Origin: a virus
Direction: 5' to 3' (one strand)
DNA: 64,000 nucleotides
IMG/VR virus record: IMGVR_UViG_3300029922_000017
Span: 32,001-96,000 of that record
This document shows, in pieces, positions 5,472-42,433 of the stretch (its first letter is position 1; each line of letters opens with the position of its first letter). The position numbers were made by a program, and so were the translations under genes. The notes beneath the pieces were generated by a model. It made no database searches. It had not been told where the DNA came from and worked only from the letters and a program-made list of their open reading frames with translations.

Positions 5472-5540
5472 TTAATCCCAATTTAAAAGCTGAATATTGA
5501 GTTTTAAGATTGAATATTTTCAACCATCTCCGGATATTGG

Positions 5541-6017: not shown

Positions 6018-6145
6018 TCGTGCTTTTTATCTTCCGCTCCTGCTAACCCGACAACTGTATTTCTATTATATGAATGGGAGCGGAGTGGTGCTACCCACTT
6101 AATTGTGGGGCAACTAAACTTCGGTTGTTTCATATTACTATTCAT
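6005..6145 (-). CDS. Putative attenuator leader peptide (46 aa)
   Basis: MNSNMKQPKFSCPTIKWVAPLRSHSYNRNTVVGLAGAEDKKHEVGI*; stop codon lies inside the antiterminator strand. Confidence 0.65.
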   Translation of the reverse strand: MNSNMKQPKFSCPTIKWVAPLRSHSYNRNTVVGLAGAEDKKHEVGI

Positions 6146-6221
6146 ACTAAATTATATATATCTTCGACTTTTACTTTTCTTTAAAATTTCTTAATAAATC
6201 TTTCATTAATTTATTATGTGA

Positions 6222-6818: not shown

Positions 6819-7062
6819 AGATTTCAAATTATTTTTTAATTTTTCTTCGAAATACTTATCCTACTCATCTTCTCCTAACATATCAAACGAGTCAAACATA
6901 ACGTCCATGACACTTCTCCGTCTGCCATTCTCTTTAAATTTTTCCCAAGTTTCATCATTCATAAAATATTATCTCCCTCGTAATTTCTTACATTCTAAAT
7001 TGGCACTATTACATTCGCCGCCAAATCTTAAACATGCGATTGAAAACATAAAAAAGAGCAAT

Positions 7063-7488
7063 TCACTTCCACTCTCCTAACTCTATCAATGTGCTTTTAA
7101 TCTCTTGCCAATCGGTGGCTCCGACATAGCCACTTTTATCGTCTAAAAGTATATTGAAATAAAATTTTTGCGAGAAGTCACATAACTCCGTAGATTTACA
7201 CTCTGGATTTTCATTTATATAATGGAATTTTAAATCGTGCCGGCGCAAAATATCATTTATAGAGTCGGAATGGCTAGATGTCCATAATATAGTTTTATGT
7301 AAGTTGGACTTGTATAATACATCTAACACTTCTTTCGCTACTGGATATAACATTGCGCCCGAATTCATTCGATTATACTTGCCCTCGATTACCGTATCAT
7401 GCAAATCAATTGCCCAGTAAATTTTATTCCACTTACGGATTTCCTTCTGTTCAAACGTATGTTTGATTATGTCTCTAATTGATTTCAT
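7063..7488 (-). CDS. HAD-superfamily phosphatase-like protein
   Basis: WAIDLHDTV (DxxxT motif I), ILWTS (motif II), LLDDK (motif IV). Confidence 0.75.
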   Translation of the reverse strand: MKSIRDIIKHTFEQKEIRKWNKIYWAIDLHDTVIEGKYNRMNSGAMLYPVAKEVLDVLYKSNLHKTILWTSSHSDSINDILRRHDLKFHYINENPECKSTELCDFSQKFYFNILLDDKSGYVGATDWQEIKSTLIELGEWK

Positions 7489-7952
7489 ACTTTACTTATA
7501 TCTCCAATATCCAATAATCTCGGAACATCTATCCAATTATCAGTTACTATAGTATTGCTCAATTTTCCTTTGTAGGTATCTAAATCTTCAGCCGTAGGGG
7601 AAAATAAAATTTTAACTATATTTTCAGGAAGATGGAACATAACCTCCGGTCTATCATCAATAAAATGAGTTAGTTCCAGTGCTTTTGCAAATATAGATTT
7701 GTCTTTCCGCTCAAAACAAAAGTATAAATTTTCAAATGGAACATTAGTATTTTTTAAAACTTCATATTTTAATAACCATTCCTCGACGTGCCACTTCTGA
7801 ACTGAATTACATTTTGATATAAAATATATATTATCAAATCGGGAATGTAAATTTTTGATTACATCAAATGAATTTGGGGCTGGTTCATCTTTATTACCGG
7901 TTGCCCGATTTCCTTTAATTGTCCATCCAATATCAATTCCTAAGTTTCTCAT
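7485..7952 (-). CDS. HAD-like protein
   Basis: LGIDIGWTI, FISK, K...HFIDDR motifs; ATGA overlap with neighbours. Confidence 0.7.
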   Translation of the reverse strand: MRNLGIDIGWTIKGNRATGNKDEPAPNSFDVIKNLHSRFDNIYFISKCNSVQKWHVEEWLLKYEVLKNTNVPFENLYFCFERKDKSIFAKALELTHFIDDRPEVMFHLPENIVKILFSPTAEDLDTYKGKLSNTIVTDNWIDVPRLLDIGDISKV

Positions 7953-8278
7953 ACTTCAATATATTTAATCGGTATTCCAAGTTTAATTGCCAGTGCTATT
8001 TCTCCCGCCACGCCTTTTGATTTATCCCAACCTTCCATTTTAAGAACCCACAATTCATCACATTTCGGCAAGATAAGTTCTAAATAATTCTTCCAATAAT
8101 TCCAATCGGTTGGCAATTCATGAGCAACTGCCATTGGATGTGTGGCGGCAATTGGAGAATAAATGTAATGTCCATCCTTCATCAAATTTGCGGTCACTTC
8201 CATTACTTGTTCAAATCGTTGTCTTTGAACATCTATATCAGAATGTGAATAGGGCGATGCTAAATAGATTAATTTCAT
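7949..8278 (-). CDS. DUF1937 / nucleoside 2-deoxyribosyltransferase-like protein
   Basis: IYLASPYS...YSPI..TH...CDELWVL...GW..SKGV..EI..A...GIPI. Confidence 0.85.
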   Translation of the reverse strand: MKLIYLASPYSHSDIDVQRQRFEQVMEVTANLMKDGHYIYSPIAATHPMAVAHELPTDWNYWKNYLELILPKCDELWVLKMEGWDKSKGVAGEIALAIKLGIPIKYIEV

Positions 8279-8320
8279 TCTAAGGAGTATAACAGATATT
8301 TAGAATAAGTCAAGAAATTA

Positions 8321-8394
8321 TGGAGCGAGTGAAGGGAATCGGACCCTCGTATAAAGTTTGGAAAACTTCCATTCTACCATTGAATTACACTCGC
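8321..8394 (-). tRNA. tRNA-Gly(TCC)
   Basis: GCGAGTG/CACTCGC-TCCA; loop TTTCCAA. Confidence 0.9.
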
Positions 8395-8462
8395 TTTAAA
8401 TAGAGACTTCACAAGTCATGGTCTCTTTTCGAGATTGGGTAACTTGCCTCTAATCTCTGAAA

Positions 8463-8538
8463 TGGTAGCGATAATAGGAGTCGAACCTATATTGACAAAG
8501 CTTATGAGACTTCCGCATTACCATTATGCTATACCGCC
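8463..8538 (-). tRNA. tRNA-Met/Ile2 (CAT)
   Basis: Loop CTCATAA; T-loop TTCGACT; ACCA. Confidence 0.9.
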
Positions 8539-10548: not shown

Positions 10549-11652
10549 TCAATTAAATATTGGGGTTGGGTCTATTAAATCATTCCAATCAGATTTATTA
10601 TCGCCAACTTCTTCAAATGCACGATATATTCCATGTTTATATAATTCAATATGAAGCATGGAAGTGTTATGACCTTGGATGTCAGGTCTTTCTTTTCCTT
10701 CTTTAAGGACTCTCTTTACATTTCCTATAAAATCCCCAGATTTTAATTTCTTTCCAATTTTCATTCCAAAATCAATATCAATTTCACCATAACAAACTAC
10801 TCCGGATGCACCTTCTACTAAAACACATTTAGTATCATTCCACCACGGAGTTTGTTGAGAAGAACCAGTGAACTCTTCAATTCCTACTACGGTTCCAGAT
10901 TCAACTGCATATACGGATGCCCCATCATTGGTATATAAATCAACACCGGTATGAGTATGATGTTTTCTTTTTGTTAAAAATGCGCCGGGATGTCCTTTAA
11001 TTGGAATTCCAGAACAATTAGTGTTTTTCGAATCATCAAATCTCCAATGTAATGGGAAATGCCATTTCAATGAATTATTTACTTCTTTAACAATATCCGA
11101 AATATCAGCCAATGCTCCCATACCTTCCGTTTTGCAAGCCAACATTTTTGATTGTGGCATTACAATCTTATATCCCCAGTTGGTTAATTTATCCAAGTGT
11201 TCTTTAGTAACTGGATGTTCCCACATCGCTGTATTCGCAGCGCCGGCAATAATTAGGGGTCTATTCATATCCCACGCACGAACAACCGAGGTTAATAAGT
11301 TATCACATAATCCATTGGCAATTTTTCCCATTGTATTTAATGAACATGGGGCAATTACAAGTGCCGATGCTTGATTTCTTATATTAATATGAAGAACTCC
11401 ATCTCCAGTTTTCCACTTGCTAGTGATACGTCCTGTCGTTGGGTCTTGCCATTGCCATTCGTCGTCATCAACATAATAAATTCCACCTAGTTTTTCAACT
11501 AACAGTGCCAGTTCCAAGCAATCTATAAAATGTCTGGCTGAGTTAGTAATTATAGTATCGACTATAAAATGTTCACTCAATTGAGTGACCAGCTTCTTCC
11601 ATAATACAGTGGCAACGCTACCAGTCAATCCTAACAGTATTCGACGTTTCAT
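10549..11652 (-). CDS. HFCD flavoprotein (PPC decarboxylase/CoaC-like) fused to an M23 peptidase domain
   Basis: ILLGLTGSVA, LHI, APCSLNTMGKIANGLCDNLLT, NTAMW, LAC..EG.GAL; C-terminal HTGVDL...HIELY M23 motifs. Confidence 0.88.
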   Translation of the reverse strand: MKRRILLGLTGSVATVLWKKLVTQLSEHFIVDTIITNSARHFIDCLELALLVEKLGGIYYVDDDEWQWQDPTTGRITSKWKTGDGVLHINIRNQASALVIAPCSLNTMGKIANGLCDNLLTSVVRAWDMNRPLIIAGAANTAMWEHPVTKEHLDKLTNWGYKIVMPQSKMLACKTEGMGALADISDIVKEVNNSLKWHFPLHWRFDDSKNTNCSGIPIKGHPGAFLTKRKHHTHTGVDLYTNDGASVYAVESGTVVGIEEFTGSSQQTPWWNDTKCVLVEGASGVVCYGEIDIDFGMKIGKKLKSGDFIGNVKRVLKEGKERPDIQGHNTSMLHIELYKHGIYRAFEEVGDNKSDWNDLIDPTPIFN

Positions 11653-18433: not shown

Positions 18434-19745
18434 CATGAACTACCCATCCCCTAAAGGAGATGGGTTTCCTCTTTCATCCAACTCTTTTTGAGTTGTCCAG
18501 AGGCTACTTCGGGTTGTCCCAACCCTAGTTTTTTGATATTGTTTGCTGCTAAAATGTCTCTGTCATGTGTTACTTTACACATCGGACAAGTCCATTCTCT
18601 ATCTTTCAAAGTTAGAGAATGATTTATGTATCCACAAGAACATAATTTGGATGATGGTTCAAATCGTCCAATTTGGATGAAGTTCTTTCCATACCAATCA
18701 CATTTGTATTTCAAAATGTTGGTAAACGAATTCCATCCTACATCAGCAATTTGTTGATGTCTCATTTTTTCAAGGAAACGATATTCGTCTCTTTCATCAA
18801 CATCTTTATTTTCCATCATATCCTTTGTAGATAGAGTTTCCATACAAATTGTCTTCACTTGGTTATCGTGTGTCAACTTATGACTTAACTTGTGGTGGAA
18901 ATCTTTTCTACAATTGGTTATTTTTTCGTGTGTTTTAGCAACCTTTATTCTTTGTTTGTTTCTATTATTACTTCCTTTTGTTTTCTTTGATAATTGTCGT
19001 TGTTGTTTCTTGAGTTTTTTGAGAAATCGTTTTAATGGTTTAGGATTTTCAATCTTTTCTCCGTTGGAGAATGTAGCAAAGTGTTTCAATCCCAAATCAA
19101 TTCCAATGGTTGTTTTTTCATTTACTTTTGGATTGGATGGAAGTTCTTTCCCATCTTCAACCAAAATAGAAATGAAGTATTTGCCTGTGGTAGTTCGTGA
19201 GACATAAGACGAAGATATGTCTCCCTCAAATTGTCTGTCAAAGACACACGTAATTCCTCCAAGGAACTTTGGAATGATTACTTTTCCTTTTTCAAAATCC
19301 ACTTTAGTATTTTGTGGAATACGAAACTTTTGGTCATTCCTCTTACATTTGAATTTTGGATATGCTACTTTCTTTTTGAAAAATGAAGTGTATGCTTTAT
19401 CCAAATCCTCAAGTTTGGACTGGATAGAAAGAGAACCGACTTCGGCAAGCCAAGGTTGTTCACCCTTCTTCATTTTTGGAAGTTCTGCTTGAAGTTCGTA
19501 TCTTGAGAGATTTGTTTTATCTTTTTGGTAGGCTTCCATTTTCTTACCTAATGCCCAATTCCACACAAATCTTACACATCCAAAATGCTTCTCCAAAAGA
19601 ACTTTTTGTTCCTTGTTTGGATATATCCTATATTTGAATGCTCGTATCACAACAATACATATCATTGACTTTTAGAAAACATCAACTTATTTTCTAAATT
19701 GTGTCAATTCATCCCACCCGCTAAAGCAAGTGGGATTTCTTGCCA
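18434..19745 (-). mobile_element. IS200/IS605-family (IS1341-type, tnpB-only) element
   Basis: Subterminal hairpins with CTTTAG loops at ~19710-19736 (left) and ~18442-18465 (right, ending GGTAGTTCA); no tnpA. Confidence 0.85.
18451..19665 (-). CDS. tnpB: RNA-guided endonuclease TnpB
   Basis: HTH_OrfB N-terminus (AFKYRIYP...HFGCVRFVWN), RuvC D (IGIDLG), E (CMETL), D (DRDILAA), Zn finger. Confidence 0.95.
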   Translation of the reverse strand: MICIVVIRAFKYRIYPNKEQKVLLEKHFGCVRFVWNWALGKKMEAYQKDKTNLSRYELQAELPKMKKGEQPWLAEVGSLSIQSKLEDLDKAYTSFFKKKVAYPKFKCKRNDQKFRIPQNTKVDFEKGKVIIPKFLGGITCVFDRQFEGDISSSYVSRTTTGKYFISILVEDGKELPSNPKVNEKTTIGIDLGLKHFATFSNGEKIENPKPLKRFLKKLKKQQRQLSKKTKGSNNRNKQRIKVAKTHEKITNCRKDFHHKLSHKLTHDNQVKTICMETLSTKDMMENKDVDERDEYRFLEKMRHQQIADVGWNSFTNILKYKCDWYGKNFIQIGRFEPSSKLCSCGYINHSLTLKDREWTCPMCKVTHDRDILAANNIKKLGLGQPEVASGQLKKSWMKEETHLL

Positions 19746-19809: not shown

Positions 19810-20089
19810 GTGAATATGTTGCAGTATAAGAGTGATTGGAACGGAAAGAATTTTCTAAAAATAGGAAGATTCGAACCATCCAGTAAAATGTGTAGTAAGT
19901 GTGGATATACTAATCATAATCTATTATTGAGTGATAGAGAATGGGAATGTCCAATTTGCAATACTAATCACGATAGAGATGTGAATGCAGCTAATAATAT
20001 ATTAGACTTTTCATTTCCTAAAACGGAGTTTTTAAAGGGTAGGAATTACCCTATTGAAACTCAACTGCTTTAGTAGTTGGGTAGTTCAC
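19810..20089 (+). pseudogene. tnpB: TnpB C-terminal fragment with its own IS right end
   Basis: MLQYKSDWNGK...FEPSSKMCSKCG...DRDVNAANNI; right-end hairpin with CTTTAG loop ending GGTAGTTCAC. Confidence 0.85.
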
Positions 20090-22746
20090 GACGCCATCTG
20101 CAAATCATCATTCCCATATGCTCCCATGTAAGTTGCGTCATAATCATTTATAATATAATTTAATAATGAGGTTAGTGTTGGTAGATGTTTGACACTTCCC
20201 GATTTAAAATCTATACGAACACTGAAATTGGGATTTATGAGAATGGAGTCGGAATTAATTTTATTATGGTATTTATTATTGGAAGTATTCCATATAAATC
20301 CCTTCTCGGTCAAATATTGTTCATTGGTAGGACTTAATTTTTTACCGCCTACTTTTCCAGTTGATTGTTTATTGGTTGGAACTGGTGTTTTCCCAATAAA
20401 TCCATTGTCATCATAATTATCGGCTATATATTGGGTCATATCATTAATTGGCTTACTCAATTTAATTCCGGCAAATTGTGCCGATACCAATACTGATTTA
20501 TCATTATTAAAGAATGTAACGGTATCATTATTCTTTCTATGTTTATAATAAGTTATACCGCCATTATTTAATACTTCAAATCCACGGGACACCATTCCCA
20601 TTTCATCTCCATCCGTTAAACGTATGGATTTTGGAGGTGTATTCAATCCAACGTGTAGAGTATAATCTGAACTTGAGGTTGAATTTGGAGGAATGACCGA
20701 TGGTTTTTTAGTATACATCTGGGCAGTTGTAGAAGTTGTGCCTCCATATATATTGGACGCATATGTATTTCCGCCATAATATGGGTCCCAATTACCATTA
20801 ACATCATAATGTCCTTTGGTGTGTTGGTCGGGACTCGCCTTCTGTGTAAGAATGGGCGTTGACGGAGGGGGCGGATTTAAACTATAGTCTGCATTATGTA
20901 TTTGTGTCGGTGTTAATGTATGAAATTTTAATTCGGTATTTTTCTCGGAACATCTCTTGAATAAGTCGTCAAAGTTATTAAATGTCTCTATATACGCCAT
21001 ATCATATCTAATTCCAATTGCATATGTCCCATCAGTAAATGCCGCCGCAGTTAGCATTTTCGGTTCGGCATTACCATCCGTATCTACGACATTAAAATTG
21101 GCAAATTCCAGTCGTTCGAAATCCGATGGGCGAATATTAATGGTTAAAAATTTAAGTTTTTGTTCTTTTGTAAAGTCAGTGACGGCTCGACGAGCGGCAT
21201 ACATCGTATATCGAGGCAATTTTGTAATATTGTCACCATGTTCTTTTTTAAATTTTTCAATTGCTTCATTAAAATCATGGAACACCTGTGCATCGGAGTC
21301 ATCGTCTGTGTTTATAGTTATGATGTTATTTTCGTGAATTTTTAAGTTATATTTTAGTATTTTAATTTGGTTGTCTTTATTTTTATATTTCACGCTGGCA
21401 CTATAATTCGTCCCATCCATGGTATTAAAATCTAAAGAGTCTAATATTTTTTTCTGCTCCGGAGTGGCGTGTATAGCAGGTGAATTTATATATTCTTCCA
21501 TCTTTCGCTCATCTTCCGGATTACCCGGTAAATATACCAAACACCTATTGATTAATTGTTTTATAACGGGCGAAACATCTTCCAAATATCTGGCAACGTG
21601 AGTTACTCTGGCACGTCTATCCAAATCCCGTTGAGGAATAAATAACCCTCCCTTATTTAACATAGGACCGGAATTATGTGCTAAATCATAAATGTGGTCA
21701 ATAGCAGCCGATATTTTTTCGTAATTATGAGATTGTAATTCGGGCATTAACTTAATAAAGGCAGTCGCTCCAGTTCCCCATGCTGGTCCACCATACGAAC
21801 TTTCGCTCCATGCAATTTTGGAATAGGCATTTTCAATGTCTTTCCAAGTTAGTTTGGAGTTATTAATTGCATGATTTATTTTAGCCACCACTTTTGAACT
21901 TATCTGTCCACCAACCGAATAATCATCCTCGGTTAATAGACATATTTCGTTTATGAAATTCTCATTTGTGCTTTCCGAGTCCCAGAAGGGGTCATATTTT
22001 TTCCAGTAATCATCTTCGGTGTCATCGGTTGGTTCTGCATCGGAAAGTTCTGGGTCTTCTTCCGGTTTATATTCATTATCTGGTTTAGGTTCGATTTTGT
22101 CTAGGTCATCGGTAGCATCTGGTTCTTTTTCGGGTTCTTCCGGCTCCGGAACATCTCCAGTGCCAACATAATTATTATCATACAATGCGGAGAACTTCAG
22201 GAGTCGTTTGACCGACTCTTCTTGTCCTGTCATACTCGGCAAATATGTTTTTACAAGTTTATTAAACCTTTCTTTTGAAATTGTCGTTTTGTTTGGTTGT
22301 TTTTCCAGATAAATTGTATTTCTAAATGATAGCCATTGATGTGATTTATTAAAAATATGCCTTAACTCTTGGACTAATGCCATTCTCAAATATCCTGACA
22401 ACTTGGTTCCCAATATTTTTGTAACTTGTTCGAATACGTCATCAATAATAACTCTTAATTTATGAGGAGCAATTTTACCACCCATCATAGGATATTCAAC
22501 ATCATCCCAATTTGTCCCCGCCGCAAATCCAGCACCAAAATTCGGGTCGGTCTTTGCTGCATGGACTTTTGCACCGGTTGACATGGGGAGTGGCGTTCCA
22601 AGAATACGATGTAAGTATTCCATGGCATAAAAATCGTAAAATATACGTTTGGAAGCAGTAGTATCACCCGTTTTCAGGAGATTTATTTTCGGAGGTGTAT
22701 ATCGCAATCTCTCAACCAAGAGAGAGGCTAACAAAATTCGACTCAT
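20086..22746 (-). CDS. Large multidomain protein, probably virion/head-associated
   Basis: 886 aa; MSRILLASLLVE start after TATTTATA; acidic linker; YGGPAW...IDHIYDLAHNSG..LNK segment; C-terminal repeats. Confidence 0.7.
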   Translation of the reverse strand: MSRILLASLLVERLRYTPPKINLLKTGDTTASKRIFYDFYAMEYLHRILGTPLPMSTGAKVHAAKTDPNFGAGFAAGTNWDDVEYPMMGGKIAPHKLRVIIDDVFEQVTKILGTKLSGYLRMALVQELRHIFNKSHQWLSFRNTIYLEKQPNKTTISKERFNKLVKTYLPSMTGQEESVKRLLKFSALYDNNYVGTGDVPEPEEPEKEPDATDDLDKIEPKPDNEYKPEEDPELSDAEPTDDTEDDYWKKYDPFWDSESTNENFINEICLLTEDDYSVGGQISSKVVAKINHAINNSKLTWKDIENAYSKIAWSESSYGGPAWGTGATAFIKLMPELQSHNYEKISAAIDHIYDLAHNSGPMLNKGGLFIPQRDLDRRARVTHVARYLEDVSPVIKQLINRCLVYLPGNPEDERKMEEYINSPAIHATPEQKKILDSLDFNTMDGTNYSASVKYKNKDNQIKILKYNLKIHENNIITINTDDDSDAQVFHDFNEAIEKFKKEHGDNITKLPRYTMYAARRAVTDFTKEQKLKFLTINIRPSDFERLEFANFNVVDTDGNAEPKMLTAAAFTDGTYAIGIRYDMAYIETFNNFDDLFKRCSEKNTELKFHTLTPTQIHNADYSLNPPPPSTPILTQKASPDQHTKGHYDVNGNWDPYYGGNTYASNIYGGTTSTTAQMYTKKPSVIPPNSTSSSDYTLHVGLNTPPKSIRLTDGDEMGMVSRGFEVLNNGGITYYKHRKNNDTVTFFNNDKSVLVSAQFAGIKLSKPINDMTQYIADNYDDNGFIGKTPVPTNKQSTGKVGGKKLSPTNEQYLTEKGFIWNTSNNKYHNKINSDSILINPNFSVRIDFKSGSVKHLPTLTSLLNYIINDYDATYMGAYGNDDLQMAS

Positions 22747-23192: not shown

Positions 23193-23579
23193 ATTAACAT
23201 TAATAACTATAACAAAATTTGGCTAAACTGTCAATTAAATTTAATCCCAAAACAGAATATTGGGGATAATAAGTCATATAATAGTTTAAAATAAGTTCGT
23301 AGTTCATAGTTCAACTTTCCATTTATCAATTGCCTTTACCACCTTTTTTAATTCTCTCATCTTTCGTTTTGCCGGTATATATCGAAGGTCAGCCTCAACA
23401 GTGTCCATGTAATCTTCGGTGATTTCCTTGAGTTTTATCAAGAGTTCTTTTTTATCTTTTTCAAATGGCATCATAACGTGTGTGTAGTATAACCGACTTA
23501 AATATAAATAGCAACCTCTTTTATCAAATTTAAATAATTCTTGACTTCTCCCGATAAATCTATATACTTTCACAAAATT

Positions 23580-23810
23580 ATGAATAATACACCAGACCAA
23601 ACACTCAACCCATACAAGTCCAAATTTAAACTCATCTGTGCATCTAAATGTAAAAAGTATGCGTTGGAGTCGGCGAAAGTTAATCGACCCACCAACAACT
23701 TTACCAGAGTATCCCATGAATTTTTGGTTTCGTGTGAGAATGCCTTGCGGCAAATCATCGACTCCAAGGTGAAGTCACACCCATCCAAGGGAAAAACTTT
23801 AATGCAATGA
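23580..23810 (+). CDS. Bacterial-type histone-fold protein lacking helix 3
   Basis: LICASKCKKYALE...TRVSHEFLVSCENALRQIIDSKVKSHPSKGKTL (a1-L1 RVS-a2-L2 KT); own TTGACT-N17-TATACT promoter at 23541. Confidence 0.7.
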   Translation: MNNTPDQTLNPYKSKFKLICASKCKKYALESAKVNRPTNNFTRVSHEFLVSCENALRQIIDSKVKSHPSKGKTLMQ

Positions 23811-24331
23811 AAATACTGGTATTGTTATCGGTGGGTTTTTTAACTGCGTGTTCCTCGGTTAAATATGATAATTCAATTTTTCATTATAGCGTTCCCCAAG
23901 AACACCAGCCAAATTGTGTAGTTGGGGCGTTTTGCATGTATGCAAATGAGATGTTAAATGTCAAAACCTCTCCGTTATATTGGCAAACCAACAAACTGAC
24001 AAAATTGGAAGGGACTGGAGTTGAATTGGAAAATATTATACCGGCATGGAACCGAGTGTTTATAAATTCGCCGTTAACTTGCATATATGACTCGAAAAAT
24101 TCCGATTTAAATATACATATAACCTTTAAACGGCCTTATATGTGGATTGGAAAATATAGCGGTGGCTATCATGCTTGTTTGATATATTTTCAATCCAACT
24201 CAGTAACCTATAAACATTTTATATATTATCCATTGGAACATACTAATTATATGGTGACAGTAGATTATATATCTTTCTTTACCAATACGCTCCAAATTTA
24301 TGATATCATCGGAACAACTAACAAAAATTAA
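23807..24331 (+). CDS. Lipoprotein with C39/papain-like peptidase signature
   Basis: Lipobox LTAC; QEHQPNCVV (Q..C) and GYHACLI (H). Confidence 0.55.
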   Translation: MKILVLLSVGFLTACSSVKYDNSIFHYSVPQEHQPNCVVGAFCMYANEMLNVKTSPLYWQTNKLTKLEGTGVELENIIPAWNRVFINSPLTCIYDSKNSDLNIHITFKRPYMWIGKYSGGYHACLIYFQSNSVTYKHFIYYPLEHTNYMVTVDYISFFTNTLQIYDIIGTTNKN

Positions 24332-33653: not shown

Positions 33654-34328
33654 AGTTTTGTTTTTTGTTTTGTTTTAGTTGTTACTTACAAGAAAGAGTA
33701 TATCTATTTTTAATTGAATGTCAAATCTTTATTTATATTCCCAGACAACTTCCTGATACTGCTTGCCGTCTTGGGATTGTTTGATAATGTGGAGATTAGC
33801 CTTGTTCAATTGAGAAAATTCAATGGCATCTTCCAATCCTTGATGGTGGACTGGAAAATCAGTAGTCCCAAATTCAGTGGTGACGGCGTAATTGATATTC
33901 ATATGATTATTATACTTATTGGCTTGCAAATGTCAATTAAATTTCACTGCAACATGAAAATCCATTAATGTAAATGGACAATTCTTCAAGTAGAGTTTTT
34001 CGGGGACAGCTATCAATTGACACCATGATTGACACAGTGTTATGAATTTTGTCATAGGTAATGGCATCATTCGAGAATAGATAGAACCGGAAATATGACC
34101 CCATACCCTTTTTAAGAGCAGCAAATTCAACGTCAGTCAATTCAATATACCAAGAATGTTTTTTCATATTTTTCATATAAGAGAGTATATCTATTTTTAT
34201 ACAAATGTCAATGATTTATTTTTGCCGGATTGTTATCAAGTAACTCGAACAATATAACCAGTCAACCAAGTATTAAAAAACCTCACTTATCTTTGCTATC
34301 AGATAAGTGAGATTGTTATTGACTTTCG

Positions 34329-35387
34329 TTAAATTGCCGCCAGCAACTTGCGACCCCGTTCCTCAATTGCCGGAAGTGCATCACGGTCGGTGGTCAACAG
34401 ATTGTAAAATTCCGACTTGCTATCGGCATTGTTGCCAAATTCCGATGAAGCAAACCGGCGACCAAACGGAGTCTTGGCAGTTGCCGAGCCGTGAGTCAGC
34501 AATTGAGTGTAGGCATTGAGCAAATCAAATTCAGTCTGCCCACGATTGGCAATCCCGTTAGTGTGCAAGTGAACCAATTCCTTCACGGTGTTTTCACCAC
34601 GAGTGGACATTTTCAACTTGTCGCCAGCCTCAATTTCAGGCGTAATGAAACCAGCGAAAATTTCCTTGGCACGATTTTCGTTGCATTCATTGGCAGCAAG
34701 GCCATCCATCGCCGCCTTAAACACCGCAGCCATGCCAACAGCCTTTTCCACTTCGCCCTTGGACGCTTCCAAGCGGTCAGAAAAATTCTTGGTTGCCCGT
34801 TCGTGAAACAGAATTTTACCCGATGCACGAGAGAGAGATATCGTGTTCCAGCAAACCGGCAAGATGCTGGAGAGTTCGCATTGCGGCGACACAGACCTGT
34901 CCAATCCACCGGAAAAATTCAACTGGAAATTAGACTGGCGACCATCGCCAACCGTCATTGATTTCAGTTCGGAAAGAGTGACGCCGATAAACCAGAACGA
35001 GCGATTCCAGAGCATACCGATACTGGAAACATCGTAATTGGTTCCGGCCAATTCACCAGCAACCCATGCCCACGCTTCACGAGGCGTAAAGAGAATGTAA
35101 GTTCCCCGCTTGTCCTTTTCCTTGGCTTCACATCCGGCTTCCGTTTCGTCAACAATCGTCTCACCACAGAAAGGGGGAGCGACGGGCAGCATATCATCCA
35201 TGGACACCGGCACATGGAATTTACGGTTGCCAAACACCACTTCCTTGCCGCCATAGAAAAACAGCGGCATGGCTTTGATTTCAGGAAAATCTTCCAGCTT
35301 GGGCTTCCCAATCTTGGTCAGCTTGTGCCATGCCTGTGTTTCGGCAATTTGAAAATCACGTTTCGGGTTATAGATGCCATGTGACAT
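34329..35387 (-). CDS. DUF932-family protein
   Basis: MSHG...AWHKL N-terminus; VCWNTISL; G.TEFDLLNAYTQ. Confidence 0.85.
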   Translation of the reverse strand: MSHGIYNPKRDFQIAETQAWHKLTKIGKPKLEDFPEIKAMPLFFYGGKEVVFGNRKFHVPVSMDDMLPVAPPFCGETIVDETEAGCEAKEKDKRGTYILFTPREAWAWVAGELAGTNYDVSSIGMLWNRSFWFIGVTLSELKSMTVGDGRQSNFQLNFSGGLDRSVSPQCELSSILPVCWNTISLSRASGKILFHERATKNFSDRLEASKGEVEKAVGMAAVFKAAMDGLAANECNENRAKEIFAGFITPEIEAGDKLKMSTRGENTVKELVHLHTNGIANRGQTEFDLLNAYTQLLTHGSATAKTPFGRRFASSEFGNNADSKSEFYNLLTTDRDALPAIEERGRKLLAAI

Positions 35388-35563
35388 AATGTTTTTGTGT
35401 TAATTGTTTTTGATGTTTGTTACCAACAAGAAAGAATATACGCTTTTATTTTAATTTGTAAAGGTTTATTTTGTTTTATTTTCATCTAGTTCTAATTATG
35501 TCCAATTTCTGGACACCTTCTGTCCAGTGGAATAACTATAACCTTCGTCTTACTCTCGGAAAT

Positions 35564-35589
35564 AAAAAACTCCCCTTTCGGGGAGTTAG
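35564..35589 (-). terminator. Intrinsic terminator
   Basis: AACTCCCC-GAAA-GGGGAGTT-TTTT on minus strand. Confidence 0.85.
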
Positions 35590-35611
35590 TTGATTTTGAA
35601 TTGATTGTCAA

Positions 35612-35902
35612 TTACTTCTTGCCCTTTTTCTCGGCAAGTGCCGCAGTCGGATTTTCCGTTGTCAGTGCGGCCAGCTTCTTACGCTGGTTGGTCGAGCCAT
35701 TGGGAATAAGCGACTTCACTTTGTCGGCATGGGACAAGGCAGCGTATTCCGCATTGCGATTTTGTGCCTCAATCCGCTTTGCGTCCCGCTTCATATGAAG
35801 GATGCGGCTGGAATAGCCATTGGTTTTCAACTTGCCAATGTGCTTATTGGCCGAAGTGCCGAGTGATGCCGATTTGGTTTGGGGGTATTTTTGTGTGCTC
35901 AT
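35612..35902 (-). CDS. Small basic hypothetical protein
   Basis: K/R-rich ORF between promoter and terminator. Confidence 0.7.
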   Translation of the reverse strand: MSTQKYPQTKSASLGTSANKHIGKLKTNGYSSRILHMKRDAKRIEAQNRNAEYAALSHADKVKSLIPNGSTNQRKKLAALTTENPTAALAEKKGKK

Positions 35903-37688
35903 AAAAGTATTATATAGATTGTTTATTGATTGTCAATGAACATTTACAAAAATATCAGAATGTTCACCGTCATTCCAAGGGTCGTTATCAACCTTAAAAT
36001 TCAACTCTGTTTTAATAGTGTAATAGGTCGACCTCGTAATTTGAACTGGGTTGCCATTGATAACAATCACCGGAACAAGTTTCCCGTCGTGGCGCAACCG
36101 AAGTTTCTTTTCGCCCTTGCGATGCTGCCGAGTGGTTGAAACGGTAACATTAACTCGGTCTTTCACATTGGGATAATACTTGATAAAGATGCTATTACAT
36201 AAGGTTATACCTTCCCTGGAATACCAGGAACTTCCGTAGTGGTTGGATACCCGTTTCAATTTAAATGTTTTTGTCATATGCAAACATTATAGAGATTATA
36301 TTTCCAAAGTCAACGGGAAATTTATTTTCTTTTTCAGTTGCTATTTATAGTGTAGAATGTATATTGTATGGCATATGAAAATTTCACCAACTACTCAACT
36401 TGAATTGATGAAGATGCGTCGTCGGGTAAATATTTGGACGATACTTATGATTGTTTTTTGGTTGACTTTTTGAATTGGATAGGTATAATAATATCAATAT
36501 GAAAAATAAACAATACACTCTCGGCAACGTCACCTACGGATATTCCCTTCAATCAAAGAAGTGGGAATTCAAGATTAATGATTTTACGTTTTTAACAGCC
36601 TTGAATGGTGGTGGTAAGGTCGGTGAAACCGTGGCAAGACTTATTGAGGCTGGATATGTTCGACTTCAAAAGAAAGGCGAGGTTGGAATTGATGGATTGG
36701 CAAGGGCAAATATCAACTTGGCGATTGCTCGACACAATGCGAAGCAACTTGTCGGCAGAGATTAATAAAATATTCTTAACTATGATTTAATTTCATTGCA
36801 TTTATATTTTTATCAACCCACTGAACATTCCCTTCAACATACCCCTTTAATGGGTCTATTCTATCTAATGAAACATTATATCGTTTATATCAATGGAATT
36901 GAGTGTGATGAATTGATTAAAGCATCCAATCACAATGCCGCCGAAAAGAAAGCGGTGAATTGATATGAAAAAATATATTCAATGGTTTGATGATAAGACT
37001 AAGGCAATTCCAGTCACTTCCGAGCCTTTAGTCGGTGAGTTTGGAGATGAATTAATGGATTTCCAAGATTGGGAGCGATTAGGATTTAGAGTTATGGATT
37101 GGATGGATAAATATCCAAACGGAAAAATCATTTATATCTGGCTATAAATAATCTGACTTGCGGTGAAATTGATATGACTAAACAAGAAAATATTAAAATT
37201 GCTGGCGAAGTAATTAATTTGCTCCGAAAGAATGGAATTGTGATTGAAAGTCCATACGATGTTGAAAATTGGGCTGAGGAATGGTTAACCAATCATTCCA
37301 ATCTTTTTGAGACTAAAATGTTCAAAGAAGAATAAATTTGACTTGTTGGTGAAATTCTGCTATCTTATTGGTATTATGAATGAAATATATCAATGGCAGT
37401 TTAAAAATGGCAGCAAGACACCTTTGGAATTTACCACCTTTCCATTTGCGTTTCGTGCAATGTATAACCTAGTCCGGCAAGGAATTGATGCGGGGAAACC
37501 TGTTGATACTTCTGGATTTGTGATTGTAGGACCTAAAAATCCAAGGGGTGAGCGTGTGAGATATGGTTATTTTGCCGCTCTTGAGCTTGCTCGTTCCGGT
37601 GGCCTTTTGAACCAAGAGGGTTACATAAATGGTAAGGAATTCAAGAAAAAGTTTTGACAATCAATAAACAATCAGTATAATCTTTTAT

Positions 37689-38301: not shown

Positions 38302-38376
38302 GGGAGTGTAGCTCAGAGAAAGAGCACCTAACGTGGAGTTAGGAGGTCGCAGGTTCAAGTCCTGCCACTCCCACCA
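38302..38376 (+). tRNA. tRNA-Pro(TGG)-like with G33
   Basis: GGGAGTG/CACTCCC-ACCA; CCTAA-CGTGGAG-TTAGG; T-loop TTCAAGT. Confidence 0.8.
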
Positions 38377-38516
38377 GTTTTTAGAATTCGGATTAACAGT
38401 CAAACCGTTCGGCTACGCAAATAGACCGATAAACAATACTGGTATCATTTTGCGATGATATGTCCAATTAACTAGATTTCGATAGTGGAAGTGGCTCTAT
38501 CGGATGAATATTTTAC

Positions 38517-38672
38517 GGATAGGTCGATGTGCGAGGTGAGAGTCCTCACGAAAGATGTAATGGAAGGTTTGCATGAGTAATGTCAGTGGCATTAATTAAC
38601 TTGACACGAAAGTAATAATTGAGTAGTTATATTCAGTAGAAAACATGGGTTAGAGTCCCGTGCTATCCACCA
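38517..38672 (+). ncRNA. 156-nt RNA with tRNA-like ends and two T-loop-like hairpins
   Basis: GGATAG/CTATCC-ACCA; ATGGG-TTAGAGT-CCCGT; internal GAGG-TGAGAGT-CCTC. Confidence 0.65.
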
Positions 38673-38675
38673 ATT

Positions 38676-38899
38676 TGATTGAAGGATGTTGTGCTAAAAC
38701 CACATCATTTAAAGAGTAGGATTAGACCGGATTAATTGGAATGAAATCCCATATCAAGCCAATTAACATAGTCGGTCATAATGTGATAGTAGTAGTGACA
38801 TGACATGGATGAGATGGGCTACTACCGTGTCTTTAATGAATTAACAGTTGAGGCGAAGTATCACAAATCCTTTTGGCTTAGATATGCACACTTCAATCA
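38676..38899 (+). ncRNA. Unnamed structured RNA (~224 nt)
   Basis: Closing stem TGATTGAAG/CTTCAATCA; GACCGG..TTAATTGG/CCAATTAA..TCGGTC; GTAGTAG/CTACTAC; followed by U-tract. Confidence 0.6.
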
Positions 38900-41129
38900 T
38901 TTTTTCTTTTCTATGAGAGTAATTATAATACTACAGTTACTTACTGATAAAAATAATCATTGACAATTAAATAAAAATATCTATAATCTCTTTTATGAAT
39001 TACTATTACATCAAATTTACCAGATGGAACGAAACATTGGGAGATGAAACTGTTTATGTTCTATTGGAAACTAAAATGGATTATCCCAATTGTGACTTGG
39101 TAAAATTTGAAGCTGCTCAATGGAAAGCATTCTGGAAGCAATATCCTCAATGGGAATGTAAATATAATTCCAAACATCTTCCACAAACTAATCTTGAAAA
39201 ACTTGGAAATTATTGGTCAACTCCCTCGGCTGGAAGGATACATCGAGTCAAATGGACTACTAAAATAGAAGAATTAAAATTGTGTTGACATTTAGATATA
39301 AATCTATATTCTTATTGATATATGAGACTCTACTTTTCAAGACAAGACAAAGATAAAAAGCAAGTGTGGCAGCTTGGAAATTTGCATGTTATTTCCAACA
39401 ATCATATGATTTTCTATGCCGACAAACCATTTACCTGCATATTAAATACAGGAGAATTTAGCGGGGATGTCTTGGAATTGAATATTGATAAATGGTTTAT
39501 GGATTTTAATCAACTTACAATTCAAGGATATGTAAGAGTAGGCGGAAAAAATCAAGATAATAATAGGTTTGGAGTGGATGCTTATTCATTTTATCAAACA
39601 ATACCGGCGGAATAACTTGACAAATAGATTAAAATCTATATCTTAATACTATGAAATACATCGAACATTTCTATATTCCCGGTTTGAGTGGATATGATAT
39701 TTCAATCAAACATGGGTCATATCAAGAAGCAGCATTGAATGGTATTTTCTATTTGAAATTCCTCAATATGGTGGATACCCTATGTTTGATGATGTATATA
39801 ACACTCATCAAATTGAAGATATGATTAATTCCGTATTTACATGGACATGAGAGAATACATTGAAGATGCCATCATTATTCTCCGGCTTATAAACGGAAAA
39901 CAATGGGCAAGTGAATATGTTCGATTGAGAATGGAATTTCACCGGCTGCATGGTCATGGATTGATCCAATCCACTTGGCACGGAGTTGATTTCTTCGATA
40001 ACGTATTGAAAGAATTGAACGGTGAAGATGTCGGTGAACCCAAAGGTGAATTTAGAAACAATTTTAAAAAACTCATTGACTTTGGTAAACAATAAAGTAT
40101 AATAATTTATATGAATGAAAAATCTTTTAGTCACGTTTGCCGACATGGAACTGTATTTACTGCCACTCGCTGTGATTTTCGGGGTGGGGTGGTAGTCAGT
40201 CACGTTCCCAAGAAAGAATTGCTGGCTATGGACATGGCTGAAATGATTGGGTATCATGCCGGTGTCATTCATCCCTTACTCAATGGGTTTCGAGGGTATG
40301 ACTGTATTTCATTTGACTTTCGCAAGTGACTGGGTATAATAGCTTATATGAAAATCAAACTTGAACTAGATACTTCCGAGTTTCTATCCAACAAAATATG
40401 GTTTAAATGGATTGGAATATGTATCTTAATTGGTGTTTTTTCTCGCCTTATCACAATCGGTGAAATTCAATATTGGCTGGTGGCATTCTCTCTTATCATC
40501 TTGGCCGATTTGAAACTTAATCCATCTAAAGCATGAATAAAGATATTCCGCCCAATTCAGATACATTAGAGAAAATTCCATTTGAAAAAACAATTCCCGA
40601 TGTATCTTGGTATCGCCATAATACATGGGAAAAAGGGCATTACAAGCGATTTCGTCATTATATGACCATGAGCCAAAATATTGACGGGTTTGAATTCTTT
40701 AATACTATCGGTGAAAACTAATATGACCAAAGAAGAACGTAAGAAATATCTCATGTCCAAGCACATTGATATGAATGACCCTATCGGTGAATTGCCAACT
40801 TCAATTGTTGACATTGAAGATGAATTGTCGGTGAATGATGGCTATCAGGAACATCAAAAAACAGCCACAAAGAAATTGACAAGTGACGAATAATTGATAT
40901 ACTTTTTATATGAAACATAACATTGAATTGGACGGAAAGAAATACGTATTGGATGCCGAACGTGCTATTGCCCTTGGGGTTCTTGCCACGCAAACATATC
41001 GTTATAGTGATGTGAAGCAAGGAGATGTCTTTACTATTGGTGAAGTTAAGGATTTGAAGAAGGAAAGAAGTTGACATCTGATAATAAAACGGTATAATGA
41101 GTTTTAGTTAATTGCATATTTGGTGGAAT

Positions 41130-42425: not shown

Positions 42426-42433
42426 ATTTTGAT

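Follow-up and report, generated by a model that had tools for sequence, protein, structure and literature searches.

Small basic phage proteins related to alpha3 histones: a family with a predicted two-helix histone fold

Background

The histones of bacteria and of their viruses are a young field of study, with HBb (Bd0055) of Bdellovibrio bacteriovorus characterised in 2023-2024. Bd0055, with its single-turn alpha3, is a member of the alpha3 histone family, which is defined by a strongly shortened alpha3 (PMC11390915, PMC11317129), down to 3-4 residues; in the alpha3-truncated histones, alpha2 is also 4-5 residues shorter than in nucleosomal histones (PMC11390915). The RxTxxxxD motif, which braces loop L2, is common to the nucleosomal, face-to-face and bacterial-dimer histones (PMC11317129, PMC11390915), and in the HBb crystal (HBb-DNA_1) the DNA phosphates are contacted by K12, T23, S24, K52 and T53 (PMC11317129). 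Bacterial histones have been reported in few phyla only, and the bacterial dimer group consists of closely related sequences that are exclusive to bacteria (PMC11390915).

Phage alpha3 histone-fold proteins have so far been catalogued solely in silico (PMC11390915, PMC13681535). The "phage histones" of Schwab et al. 2024 (A0A2E7QIQ9; PMC11390915), from tailed phages, have an alpha3-type fold without RxTxxxD and carry a C-terminal alpha-helical tetramerisation domain; DNA bridging has been proposed for these proteins. By HMM mining, Liu et al. (hLife 2025, PMC13681535; 10.1101/2024.12.06.627149) delineated four clusters of small Caudoviricetes proteins of the alpha3 type, namely, the face-to-face-like VFFHFPs, with a Lys-enriched N-terminal tail of 5-40 aa and a predicted tetrameric state, the BBVHFPs, with a C-terminal helix, the VHHHFPs, with a 7-residue C-terminal loop, and the VTTHFPs, with a long C-terminal helix (PMC13681535). 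Set against these descriptions, the family that we describe here, typified by the protein P0001, is a variant.

Results and discussion

The gene and its family

The window, by which we mean the whole stretch of 64,000 nucleotides that was analysed, is one part (positions 32,001 to 96,000) of a 138,917-base IMG/VR virus record, IMGVR_UViG_3300029922_000017. The record encodes rIIA, rIIB, an NAD-dependent ligase, thymidylate synthase and homing endonucleases, in agreement with an earlier reading of the sequence alone (hereinafter, the sequence-only reading), which took the protein to be phage-encoded, and P0001 is the product of a large uncultured peat phage. The sequencing runs listed as containing the stretch are peat metagenome DNA runs, with no RNA runs among them. 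Among the 15 best rows listed, the rIIA of the peat phage is at most 28% identical to that of any isolate, and P0001 itself had no match, by DNA or by tblastn, in the INPHARED phage collection.

The ATG at 23580 is a likelier start than the TTG at 23541 because the Met column at this position is nearly invariant in the alignment of 88 relatives; the TTG would therefore be the beginning of a -35-like hexamer (Table 1) rather than a start codon. Read from this ATG, the ORF yields the 76-aa protein that had been reported previously, with the last sense codon ending at 23807, a pI of 9.85 and a net charge of +9. On sequence grounds, the coding frame is confirmed by 88 relatives at E<=0.01 and by 949 cluster representatives (50% identity) at E<=0.001.

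Table 1. Features of the P0001 locus (positions in the window; residue numbers from the ATG)
Feature	Positions	Strand	Basis or remark
Whole ORF	23541..23810	+	ORF finder; 89 aa counted from TTG
76-aa histone-fold protein (P0001), CDS	23580..23810, including stop 23808-23810	+	in-frame ATG, relatives, profile match
Sigma-70-type promoter-like site	-35 TTGACT 23541-23546; 16-nt spacer; -10 TATACT 23563-23568	+	10/12 consensus matches
N-terminal tail, residues 1-20	23580..23639	+	pLDDT 56 (residues 1-10) and 79 (11-20)
Helix alpha1, residues 21-35	23640..23684	+	AlphaFold model; K25 is K or R in 221/222
Loop L1, residues 36-45	23685..23714	+	6-residue insertion vs HTkC; near-invariant F41, R43, V44, S45
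Helix alpha2, residues 46-66 (dimerisation helix)	23715..23777	+	model; predicted antiparallel crossing at residue 56
Loop L2 and C-terminus, residues 67-76	23778..23807	+	signature H-P-S-x-G-K-T-L; no alpha3 after
Downstream 174-aa ORF	23807..24331	+	ATG overlaps the stop of the histone-fold gene (ATGA)

The P0001 family is big and almost phage-only. Its members, mostly 57-64 aa in length, occur on many unrelated phage contigs of widely differing composition and are strongly basic, with a median pI of 10.0, a median net charge of +8 and a pI >9 in 99.5% of the 218 members that matched a motif search (the column counts given below use 222 sequences). In a scan of 185,579 species genomes with patterns derived from the 88-member alignment, a single locus emerged among 98 pattern matches, and this locus is itself phage DNA; because the patterns were narrow, the scan weakly indicates that the family is absent from cellular genomes.

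As a single sequence, P0001 matched nothing in Pfam or PHROGs, histone families included; nor did any family of these two collections, again including the histones, match the 88 and 79 members scanned, for which Pfam gave scattered chance hits only. In BFVD, two uncharacterised "uncultured Caudovirales" proteins were retrieved (E 0.027 and 0.13), both without annotation, and the ESM Atlas contains viral clusters without a name, 63-64 aa long and scoring 0.94-0.95. A cluster at rank 27 in the Atlas (score 0.85) has PF00808 on 17% of its members and is a lead only.

Relationship to the alpha3 histones

When compared with the PDB, a diverse 79-member profile of the family matched HTkC, the face-to-face histone of the archaeon Thermococcus kodakarensis (9F2C; Schwab et al. 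2024, PMC11390915), with an E-value of 3.3e-6 (30.4 bits; profile positions 6-63 against 2-54 of the 59 residues in the chain); the next match had an E-value of 0.95, leaving HTkC as the sole meaningful match among solved proteins. The narrower 88-member profile reached HTkC at E 0.33, and the best match of the single-sequence search, the TAF1 bromodomain (E 0.55), was discarded as noise. The profile match is significant and shows, in silico, the homology of the P0001 family with the alpha3 histones; the sequence-only reading had likewise called the protein a histone relative. The likeness to Bd0055 in particular was not supported: at the level of sequence, the detectable relative is HTkC instead of Bd0055, and neither HBb nor HLp was matched at E<=10 in the PDB searches with the single sequence, the 88-member profile or the 79-member profile. 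Nor was the nearly gap-free alignment with Bd0055 that had been proposed; in the structural alignment, residues 15-76 of the model (62 positions) and 2-56 of 8FVX (55 positions) have 54 positions aligned.

The AF2 model of P0001 is a helix-loop-helix-loop structure (pLDDT 83.5). Foldseek placed HTkC and HBb at ranks 1-5 (TM by target 0.65-0.68, rmsd 2.1-2.8 Å, 27% identity), although the E-values, 0.5-2.4, are weak in absolute terms. In a search against 48,161 chains, HTkC came first (Z 5.1, rmsd 1.9 Å, 53 aligned), HLp and HBb had Z 4.7, and the first 17 rows were all histone-fold proteins, although a Z of about 5 is common for small helical models.

A homodimer of P0001 was predicted with an ipSAE of 0.71 (three runs: 0.71, 0.73 and 0.68), compared with 0.00 for the best control; at least 97% of the contacts agreed between the runs, and the pLDDT of the partner was at least 75. 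Among proteins of known structure, 20 of 30 pairs and 1 of 23 single chains also reached the mark that this prediction passes, counts that are only rough because a custom alignment was used, and the complex predictor may reproduce solved histone dimers that it has memorised. The predicted contacts join alpha2 to alpha2 and alpha2 to alpha1 (56:56, 52:60, and residues 60/64 against 27/28/31 of the partner), and L1 (39-45), L2 (71-76) and residues 16-20 of the N-terminal tail lie within the interface. The predicted arrangement is an antiparallel alpha2 "handshake" homodimer, so that the sequence-only reading survives, in silico, the fold-based refutation that it had set itself. The family also includes a natural tandem doublet (P0226). 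Its model comprises two such units (pLDDT 85.0, pTM 0.76) and resembles in fold the histone doublets of viruses and archaea: the 11 highest Foldseek rows are all doublets of this type or single-chain histone pairs, led by Melbournevirus 9cvt_D (E 0.057), and the rmsd of the doublet's matches is 6-9 Å.

A predicted histone fold without the alpha3 stub and the Arg-Asp clamp

The histone-fold elements alpha1, L1, alpha2 and L2 are all present in the model, with 21 residues in alpha2, whereas the third helix is absent. The model contains only the two helices, so the absence of helix 3 noted before holds, as does the statement that the protein stops right after L2: in 183 of 218 members, the chain ends 0-1 residue past G-x-T-[LIFV] and in 201 within 3 residues (2 in P0001). 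The residues of the two loops that had been singled out, RVS in L1 and KT in L2, are near-invariant. In L1, the counts among the 222 sequences are 199 for R36, 217 for F41, 219 for R43, 213 for V44 and 191 for S45; in L2, they are 167 for H67, 217 for P68, 211 for S69, 220 for G71, 187 for K72, 221 for T73 and 220 for L or I at position 74. Accordingly, the K-T of L2 and the alpha1 Lys of the bacterial dimer histones are retained (K or R at position 25 in 221). The N-terminal tail, which in P0001 comprises some 20 residues, three of them Lys, varies among the relatives in length and sequence, and its residues 1-10 are modelled with low confidence.

A shortened alpha3 might seem to be a peculiarity of P0001, but strong shortening defines the published alpha3 histone family, Bd0055 included. 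What sets the P0001 family apart is the loss of even this stub of alpha3, together with that of the Arg-Asp clamp. The reduction goes beyond the 3-4 residues of alpha3 in the definition of that family, and neither RxTxxxxD nor RKTxxxD is found in the P0001 family: the position of the Arg is occupied by Gly in 220 of 222 sequences, the Thr is kept in 221, and the chain stops before the position of the Asp. As far as the published descriptions considered here extend, this is the most reduced histone fold.

The nature of this reduction emerges from the comparison with HTkC, which ranks first among the structural matches (Z 5.1-5.2, rmsd 1.9 Å, 53 aligned). HTkC, at about 59 aa, is similar in size to the 57-64 aa core of the family, and the two share K-x-V-K in alpha1 (the K-x-K-V-K stretch of HTkC aligns with alpha1 of the family), R-V-S in L1 and G-(R)-K-T-L in L2. 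HTkC, however, has the R of RxT followed by five residues beyond K-T-L, a part that comprises the alpha3 stub and the clamp Asp of the motif (PMC11390915), whereas the family has Gly in place of the Arg and ends 0-1 residue after K-T-L. Conversely, a 6-residue insertion before L1 distinguishes the family; it appears as a single gap in the alignment and matches the insert described in the sequence-only reading. Furthermore, the archaeal protein is a tetramer, and the modelling of the phage protein covered the dimer. The tetramer residues R48 and N52 in the logo of the face-to-face histones, which form a torus-shaped tetramer, map to S66 and K70 via the HTkC alignment and are not kept: the S66 column contains S in 81, R in 44, A in 23, Q in 20 and T in 17 of the 222 sequences, and the K70 column K in 147, V in 28, I in 16, R in 11 and L in 5, with Asn outside the five commonest residues.

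HBb (8FVX, 8CMP, 9EZZ and 9F0E; Z 4.5-4.7, rmsd 2.0-2.3 Å, 52-55 aligned, 27-29% identity) resembles P0001 in having K-T in L2, a Ser in L1 and a dimeric state, predicted in the case of P0001, and serves as the working model of how DNA would be bent or coated. By contrast, P0001 lacks the R51-D58 clamp, the one-turn alpha3 and the DNA-contacting R57 in alpha3 that are all present in HBb (PMC11317129), the L1 region of the P0001 family is longer, and HBb is a bacterial chromosomal protein whereas the P0001 family is phage-borne.

Among the catalogued phage proteins, the "phage histones" of Schwab et al. also lack RxTxxxD (PMC11390915), but the C-terminal helical domain that they carry is absent from P0001, which has no sequence beyond L2, and 183 of 218 relatives likewise end after L2. 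The variable tail of the P0001 family and its nearness to HTkC are reminiscent of the VFFHFPs (PMC13681535). The description given by Liu et al., in the part that serves for comparison here, makes no mention of HPSxGKTL, of complete alpha3 loss or of an L1 insertion, and the family is compared with their clusters by description only. Their set counts 289 non-redundant (539 total) Caudoviricetes proteins (PMC13681535), against the 949 representatives at 50% identity found here.

Promoter and genomic context

The promoter-like site ends 11 nt before the ATG of the P0001 gene, a position that would give the transcript a leader just a few nucleotides long, with the putative transcription start placed from the site itself. 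Promoter-like sites as such occur about as often as expected by chance (17 found against 16.1 expected from shuffles), but 9 of the relatives' 26 distinct upstream regions carry a like site that ends 6-12 nt before the ATG, compared with 19 of 684 control ORF regions (Fisher p 1.2e-7), where the loci of the relatives come from two related clades and the control ORF starts were set mechanically to the most upstream start codon. The dedicated sigma70 promoter assigned to the gene by the sequence-only reading therefore has a counterpart in the DNA, ordinary when taken alone but enriched in its placement among the relatives.

The 174-aa ORF downstream is probably co-transcribed with the histone-fold gene. 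In the translated sequence, its N-terminus reads like a lipoprotein signal peptide (L-T-A-C); it had no match in Pfam and only weak ones in PHROGs, and it is not conserved beside the relatives of P0001. Synteny between this locus and those of the relatives is almost nil, and we found no HU-family gene in the 139-kb record. The neighbours in the window are uninformative about a DNA role, the overlapping partner being lipoprotein-like. Elsewhere, a family-B DNA polymerase is encoded within 6 kb in 13 of 39 related viral loci; in the 11 loci that were mapped, it precedes the family gene by 1-3 genes and shares its strand, and clamp-loader-like, Mom, macro and YopX genes occur close by. The relatives adjacent to such polymerases are on contigs of 30-190 kb. 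At locus L044, the family gene is located directly 3' of a polymerase processivity factor, and a large terminase gene is about 2 kb off.

Possible functions

Taken together, these observations make it probable that P0001 is a small, basic, two-helix histone-fold protein that forms a handshake dimer, binds DNA and acts early in infection as a nucleoid-associated protein of the phage; DNA binding, early expression and the biological role are inferred. Under this hypothesis, two alpha1-L1-alpha2-L2 chains would interlock antiparallel along alpha2, creating a face on which K25 of alpha1 and R43-S45 in L1 of one chain adjoin K72-T73 in L2 of the other. The dimer would contact the DNA backbone irrespective of sequence, bending or coating the DNA as has been shown for HBb. 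L2 may not be held in the DNA-binding shape because the RxTxxxxD brace is absent; the His-Pro-Ser-x-Gly stretch before K-T probably takes the place of the Arg-Asp clamp and the alpha3 stub in this capacity. Given the near-consensus sigma-70 promoter with almost no leader, the host RNA polymerase probably makes the protein early and in quantity. The target could be replicating phage DNA, to be organised or shielded, the host nucleoid, or both, and the DNA coating or protection that had been suggested from the sequence is a reasonable inference.

We regard as doubtful a more specific scenario under which P0001 is the type of a very large, phage-restricted lineage (roughly 950 clusters at 50% identity) of clamp-less, two-helix, "half-open" histones. 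Expressed within minutes of infection from host promoters with nearly no leader, these would coat DNA, forming a phage chromatin that either protects the incoming or replicating genome against host nucleases or silences the host nucleoid, with L2 braced by His-Pro-Ser in a DNA-binding geometry unlike that of HBb.

Among the alternatives, we consider unlikely a non-DNA-binding histone fold that acts as an adaptor in protein-protein interactions or RNA binding (TAF-like, CENP-S/X-like or SOS-type), the loss of the clamp and alpha3 then reflecting a change of function. TAF4, TAF12 and other non-nucleosomal folds score in the same range as HBb (Z 4.5-4.8), the RxTxxxxD motif is lost, and both the uninformative context in the window and the co-oriented, overlapping lipoprotein-like gene speak for such a role. 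Nevertheless, the near-invariant residues are those at the histone DNA-contact positions (R-x-S in L1, K-T in L2 and the Lys of alpha1), the pI exceeds 9 in nearly all members, and the conserved neighbours, where there are any, are replication genes.

Slightly less likely again, in our estimate, is a histone-fold dimer that is packaged in the capsid with the genome or expressed late, when it would compact DNA for packaging. The histone doublets of giant viruses are virion components. Such doublets are among the best matches of P0226, the fold, the predicted dimer and the charge fit a packaging role equally well, and the L044 locus has its terminase gene close by. Against this, a host-type promoter with almost no leader, found in about a third of the upstream regions, fits early expression; the synteny, where present, is with replication genes rather than head genes; and the vicinity of the histone-fold gene in this window yielded neither head genes nor packaging genes.

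The suggestion, made in the sequence-only reading, of a dominant-negative of a host histone, that is, a poison subunit that forms dead-end heterodimers, is highly improbable. A retained dimerisation helix without alpha3 and the clamp is the shape to be expected of a capping subunit, but a strong homodimer is predicted, the tandem doublets imply that members naturally pair with themselves, the family occurs on many unrelated and differing phage contigs whereas bacterial histones are reported from few phyla (PMC11390915), and the sole locus in the 185,579 species genomes is phage DNA. Finally, a chance ORF or a shadow of an opposite-strand gene (149-aa ORF, 23304..23753, minus strand, overlapping) can be practically dismissed: the shortness of the P0001 ORF and the presence of long ORFs on the opposite strand speak for it, but the plus-frame protein is the one matched by the 949 representatives, its invariant positions persist across about 40% identity, and the minus-strand ORF most likely begins at a later ATG, outside the histone-fold gene.

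As a nucleoid-associated protein of the phage, P0001 would have a functional analogue in the HU-type protein TF1. This small, basic dimer bends DNA and is produced by SPO1, a large lytic phage of Bacillus, to act on the genome of the phage itself; the analogy is functional only, the HU/IHF fold being unrelated. If P0001 binds DNA, a histone-type member would join the phage DNA-architectural proteins, and P0001, with its simple putative early promoter, provides a specific candidate for a nucleoid protein of phage origin. The family, abundant and tiny as it is and absent from Pfam and PHROGs, provides a natural test of the contribution of the alpha3 stub and the Arg-Asp clamp to DNA binding and merits a dedicated family model, by which its members would cease to be listed as hypothetical in phage genomes.

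Fusions

Two apparent fusions of family members were rejected: P0235 reads like a frameshifted WGR/DNA-ligase gene running into the next gene, and in P0174 the DPBB domain lies behind a signal-peptide-like stretch, so that this protein is probably a read-through. P0152, by contrast, combines the family sequence with a WLM protease domain (E 1.4e-18) in one fused protein.

The gene and its phage

The open reading frame with the histone-like gene contains an in-frame ATG at 23580 that gives the 76-residue protein P0001, the product already picked out in a sequence-only reading of the window. We take this codon as the start because the corresponding Met column is nearly invariant in an alignment of 88 relatives; accordingly, the upstream TTG at 23541 is assigned to a promoter-like site. 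The N-terminus encoded by the overlapping 174-aa ORF reads like a lipoprotein signal, and Pfam and PHROG scans returned no family for that ORF.

Features of the window referred to in the text
Feature	Coordinates	Strand	Remarks
ORF with the histone-like gene	23541..23810	+	89 aa from TTG (ORF finder)
Promoter-like site	from 23541, ending 11 nt 5' of ATG 23580		TTGACT-16 nt-TATACT, read from the sequence
Codons of C20, C24, C52	23637-23639, 23649-23651, 23733-23735	+
174-aa ORF	23807-24331	+	ATG overlaps the histone gene stop (ATGA)
886-aa ORF, upstream of the histone gene	20086-22746	-	no Pfam match; weak phrog_20946, E 2e-4
TnpB/IS605 OrfB-type gene, adjoining the 886-aa ORF	18451-19665	-	PF01385, PF12323, PF07282
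tRNA genes, first group	2242-8538	-	17 genes in the two groups
tRNA genes, second group	38302-48913	+
367-aa ORF	10549-11652	-	Flavoprotein (PF02441, E 2.4e-28) and Peptidase_M23 (E 6.1e-7)
G+C peak	34001-36000		0.439 vs about 0.33-0.36 in the rest
DUF932 gene	34329-35387		352 aa

The window corresponds to bases 32001-96000 of an IMG/VR virus record. This parent record (138,917 bases; 39% complete according to CheckV) encodes rIIA, rIIB, an NAD-dependent ligase, thymidylate synthase and homing endonucleases, along with a T4-type RNA ligase, a TnpB-like gene and an ADP-ribosylglycohydrolase. Among the best 15 matches listed, no isolate has an rIIA more than 28% identical to the one encoded here, and the window stretch occurs in peat metagenome DNA runs. 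Together, the gene content, the distant rIIA and the peat runs indicate a large uncultured tailed phage. The histone-like gene is present in a single copy in this 139-kb record, where no HU-family gene was found.

Relationship to histones

Used alone, P0001 matched no Pfam or PHROG family and yielded only noise against the PDB. The profile of the 88 relatives brought up the archaeal face-to-face histone HTkC at E 0.33, short of significance, and the profile of 79 diverse representatives recovered the same chain (9F2C) at E 3.3e-6 and 30.4 bits, with one further row at E 0.95. The latter alignment has a single 6-residue gap and places profile positions 6-63 on residues 2-54 of the 59-residue chain. 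According to the available text of PMC11390915, 9F2C is a crystal structure from Thermococcus kodakarensis, whose alpha3-truncated histone is of the face-to-face type.

The AlphaFold2 model of P0001 (pLDDT 83.5, pTM 0.60) contains helices at 21-35 and 46-66, followed by loop only. A Foldseek search of the PDB with this model gave no match at E<=0.001; its first five ranks were HTkC and four entries of HBb, the Bd0055 protein of Bdellovibrio (E 0.52-2.4; TM by target 0.65-0.68, rmsd 2.1-2.8 A over 59 columns, 27% identity), and another bacterial histone, HLp, stood at rank 8. Structural re-alignment gave Z 5.2 for HTkC (rmsd 1.9 A, 53 aligned residues) and Z 4.5-4.6 for HBb and HLp. Moreover, a Foldseek-independent search of 48,161 chains placed HTkC at the top (Z 5.1), and the first 17 rows were all histone-fold chains. 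Z values near 5 fall in the range that the alignment tool rates common; what carries weight here is not Z but that the sequence profile and the composition of the structural lists point the same way, and we consider it highly likely that the family is a relative of the histones in fold and by homology.

Histone-fold proteins of phages have already been published, so this kind of protein is known. Schwab et al. (2024; PMC11390915) give the definition of alpha3 histones and set up 'phage histones' as a category, and Liu et al. (preprint 2024, hLife 2025; PMC13681535) report 289 non-redundant histone-fold proteins of Caudoviricetes, grouped into seven clusters that, in the available text, include face-to-face-like forms with N-terminal tails and Bd0055-like forms. 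Compared by description, the present family may overlap their VFFHFP cluster.

Conserved and lost residues

The available text of PMC11390915 counts as alpha3 histones those whose alpha3 measures 3-4 residues, and has the RxTxxxxD / RKTxxxD motif kept in face-to-face and bacterial-dimer histones. In HBb, the clamp consists of R51 and D58, alpha3 is a single turn, and R57 within it touches DNA (PMC11317129, also available in part). By contrast, Gly replaces the clamp Arg in 220 of the 222 aligned sequences of the phage family, and the chain stops short of the clamp Asp position. Of the 218 members that matched the motif (among 234 fetched proteins), 183 end 0-1 residue past G-x-T-[LIFV] which, with a model devoid of alpha3, agrees with the initial claim that the protein ends right after L2. 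The claimed insert before L1 was likewise recovered, as the gap in the profile alignment, with 6 extra residues between alpha1 and L1 compared with HTkC and R36 in 199/222 sequences, and the RVS and KT loops are family-wide (L1: R43 219/222, V44 213/222, S45 191/222; L2: K72 187/222, T73 221/222). However, the supposedly nearly gap-free alignment with Bd0055 did not hold: HBb was reached by no sequence search, and 62 model positions span 55 chain positions in the structural alignment.

A basic residue at position 25 of alpha1 (K/R, 221/222) and a signature before G-K-T (H67 167/222, P68 217/222, S69 211/222) are also conserved. The basic residue at 25 and the kept L1 and L2 residues match the kinds of positions that touch DNA phosphates in HBb, as described in the available text of PMC11317129. 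Unlike in face-to-face histones, the positions aligned to their tetramer residues are not conserved as Arg/Asn, and the C-terminal tetramerisation helix ascribed to 'phage histones' in the available text of PMC11390915 is missing. The family is strongly basic (median pI 10.0, median net charge +8; pI >9 in 99.5% of 218 members), with P0001 at pI 9.85 and +9. For several features we found no description in the available texts on alpha3 and phage histones: a total absence of alpha3 and clamp, a chain ending in HPSxGKTL, the insertion at L1, a family this large and the promoter arrangement. A full-text literature search returned no experimental study of any phage alpha3-type histone.

Predicted dimer and natural doublets

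Complex prediction for two copies of P0001 with the alignment of 88 relatives (three runs, 3 controls) gave a median ipSAE of 0.71 (0.71, 0.73, 0.68) compared with 0.00 in the best control; the runs share at least 97% of contacts, with partner pLDDT of at least 75. In calibration, which is rough here as our own alignment was used, the mark was reached by 20 of 30 solved pairs and 1 of 23 solved single chains. The two alpha2 helices are predicted to cross at 56:56, with alpha2 (52-64) on the partner's alpha1 (24-35) and with L1 (39-45) and L2 (71-76) inside the interface. These predicted contacts make up a histone handshake, the arrangement against which the sequence-only reading proposed to check the protein, although, as the tool warns, a pass may stem from likeness to solved histone dimers.

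Support independent of the complex prediction comes from tandem doublets that occur naturally in the family, P0101 (161 aa) and P0226 (140 aa). The model of P0226, folded from an alignment of both doublets and 50 singles picked from 150 listed profile matches, has pLDDT 85.0, pTM 0.76 and two helix-loop-helix units, with short bridges in all four loops. Foldseek returned 145 matches at E<=10 and 0 at E<=0.001 for this model. Histone doublets or histone pairs on a single chain fill its first 11 rows, among them the SOS histone domain, Melbournevirus 9cvt_D (E 0.057) and M. kandleri HMk (E 0.9). With rmsd values of 6-9 A for these rows, the likeness is coarse. Four other relatives of 99-114 aa (P0161, P0175, P0176, P0191) match the profile in two pieces, as if a segment had been inserted in or after alpha2.

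Cysteines occupy positions 20, 24 and 52 together in 76/222 sequences, and these columns co-vary, with N/V/(I, V or L) in most non-Cys members. In the predicted dimer, both chains have residues 19-24 and 52-56 near the two-fold axis, so the six cysteines could come together at the axis, be it as a variant of packing, as a disulfide or as a metal site.

Distribution and genomic context

Of 89 candidates in the homologue search with P0001, 88 passed E<=0.01; these proteins are metagenomic throughout and 62-112 aa long. A profile search of 1.84 billion representatives detected 949 cluster representatives at E<=0.001 (165 at E<=1e-10, 3 at E<=1e-30), and most of the 150 matches listed are 57-64 aa in length. 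The 82 matches of a pattern scan of IMG/VR resolved into 39 loci with a relative, on contigs of 4.8 to 365 kb; a script read a complete ORF from ATG in 33 of them, detected no ATG in five and picked the wrong frame in one (L024). The C-terminal end is HPS[KI]GKTL plus 1-7 residues in 38 of the 39. Among 185,579 cellular species (one genome each), 98 pattern matches contained a single confirmed locus, which represents phage DNA inside a MAG since it adjoins a large terminase and a polymerase processivity factor; with these narrow scan patterns, rarity of the family in cellular genomes is weakly shown.

The neighbours within the window are uninformative on function, and relatives of just two window ORFs, both 1-2.5 kb downstream, occur close to the histone genes in two other viral loci (L002 and L004). 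A family-B DNA polymerase (PF00136, E 1.5e-32) is encoded at most 6 kb away in 13/39 viral loci, 1-3 genes upstream on the same strand in 11 mapped loci of these 13 (an overlap filter removed the other two), with Mom, macro-domain, clamp-loader-like and YopX genes downstream; in the remaining loci, the gene lies within runs of small co-directional genes. In the metagenomic protein P0152 (191 aa), a WLM metalloprotease (PF08325, E 1.4e-18) is fused N-terminally to a family member. WLM/Wss1-type proteases act on DNA-protein crosslinks, and the fusion, a single case that may be a gene-calling artefact, would fit a DNA-binding module. In another relative, P0174, the histone fold continues without a break into a stretch that resembles a signal peptide, followed by a DPBB (RlpA-like) domain; a secreted-protein gene thus lies directly 3' in two unrelated cases, counting the 174-aa ORF, which may be coincidence.

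Expression and possible function

The promoter test covered 34 starts, that is, the window and 33 loci with a clean ATG (L006-L009, L017 and L024 were left out), with 26 distinct 60-nt upstream regions. TTGACN-N15-18-TAnnnT, ending 6-12 nt 5' of the ATG, is present in 9 of the 26, compared with 19/684 control regions 5' of other ORFs from these loci (Fisher p 1.2e-7), where the nine fall in two related clades and the start codons of the controls were assigned mechanically. A -10 box so near the ATG implies a leader of few nucleotides and, from general knowledge of sigma-70, we infer a near-leaderless transcript made by the host polymerase, probably early. In keeping with this, Shine-Dalgarno-like 4-mers precede only 3/61 window ATG-ORFs of at least 100 aa, with starts set mechanically, a share below the 7.6% of random positions; initiation in the phage and, presumably, in its host seems not to depend on SD sequences.

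We propose that P0001 is a homodimeric histone fold without a clamp that would grip the DNA backbone non-specifically via alpha1 and the paired L1/L2 loops and would bend or coat DNA, and that the phage would have it produced early and in large amounts as a nucleoid-type protein of its own. Taken as a whole, this mechanism appears rather more plausible than not; DNA binding as such is probable, and a role in organising or shielding phage DNA, or in acting on the host nucleoid, is a tentative suggestion. An adaptor role without DNA binding seems unlikely for a family so basic and with these loop residues conserved, and a protein made late for condensing DNA or packaged in the virion, at odds with the probably early promoter, seems slightly less likely still. 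That P0001 is a poison subunit against a host histone is very improbable, and a spurious ORF is practically dismissed by the size of the family.

Elsewhere in the window, the two tRNA groups are oppositely oriented and include unusually long calls (two tRNA-His of 88 and 89 nt, tRNA-Trp of 93 nt, tRNA-Lys of 84 nt). The 367-aa ORF has an unusual domain pairing, of which the PHROGs match covers the endolysin-like M23 part only. The G+C peak overlies the DUF932 gene, and a DUF932 gene also adjoins the histone-like gene in another viral locus (L019).
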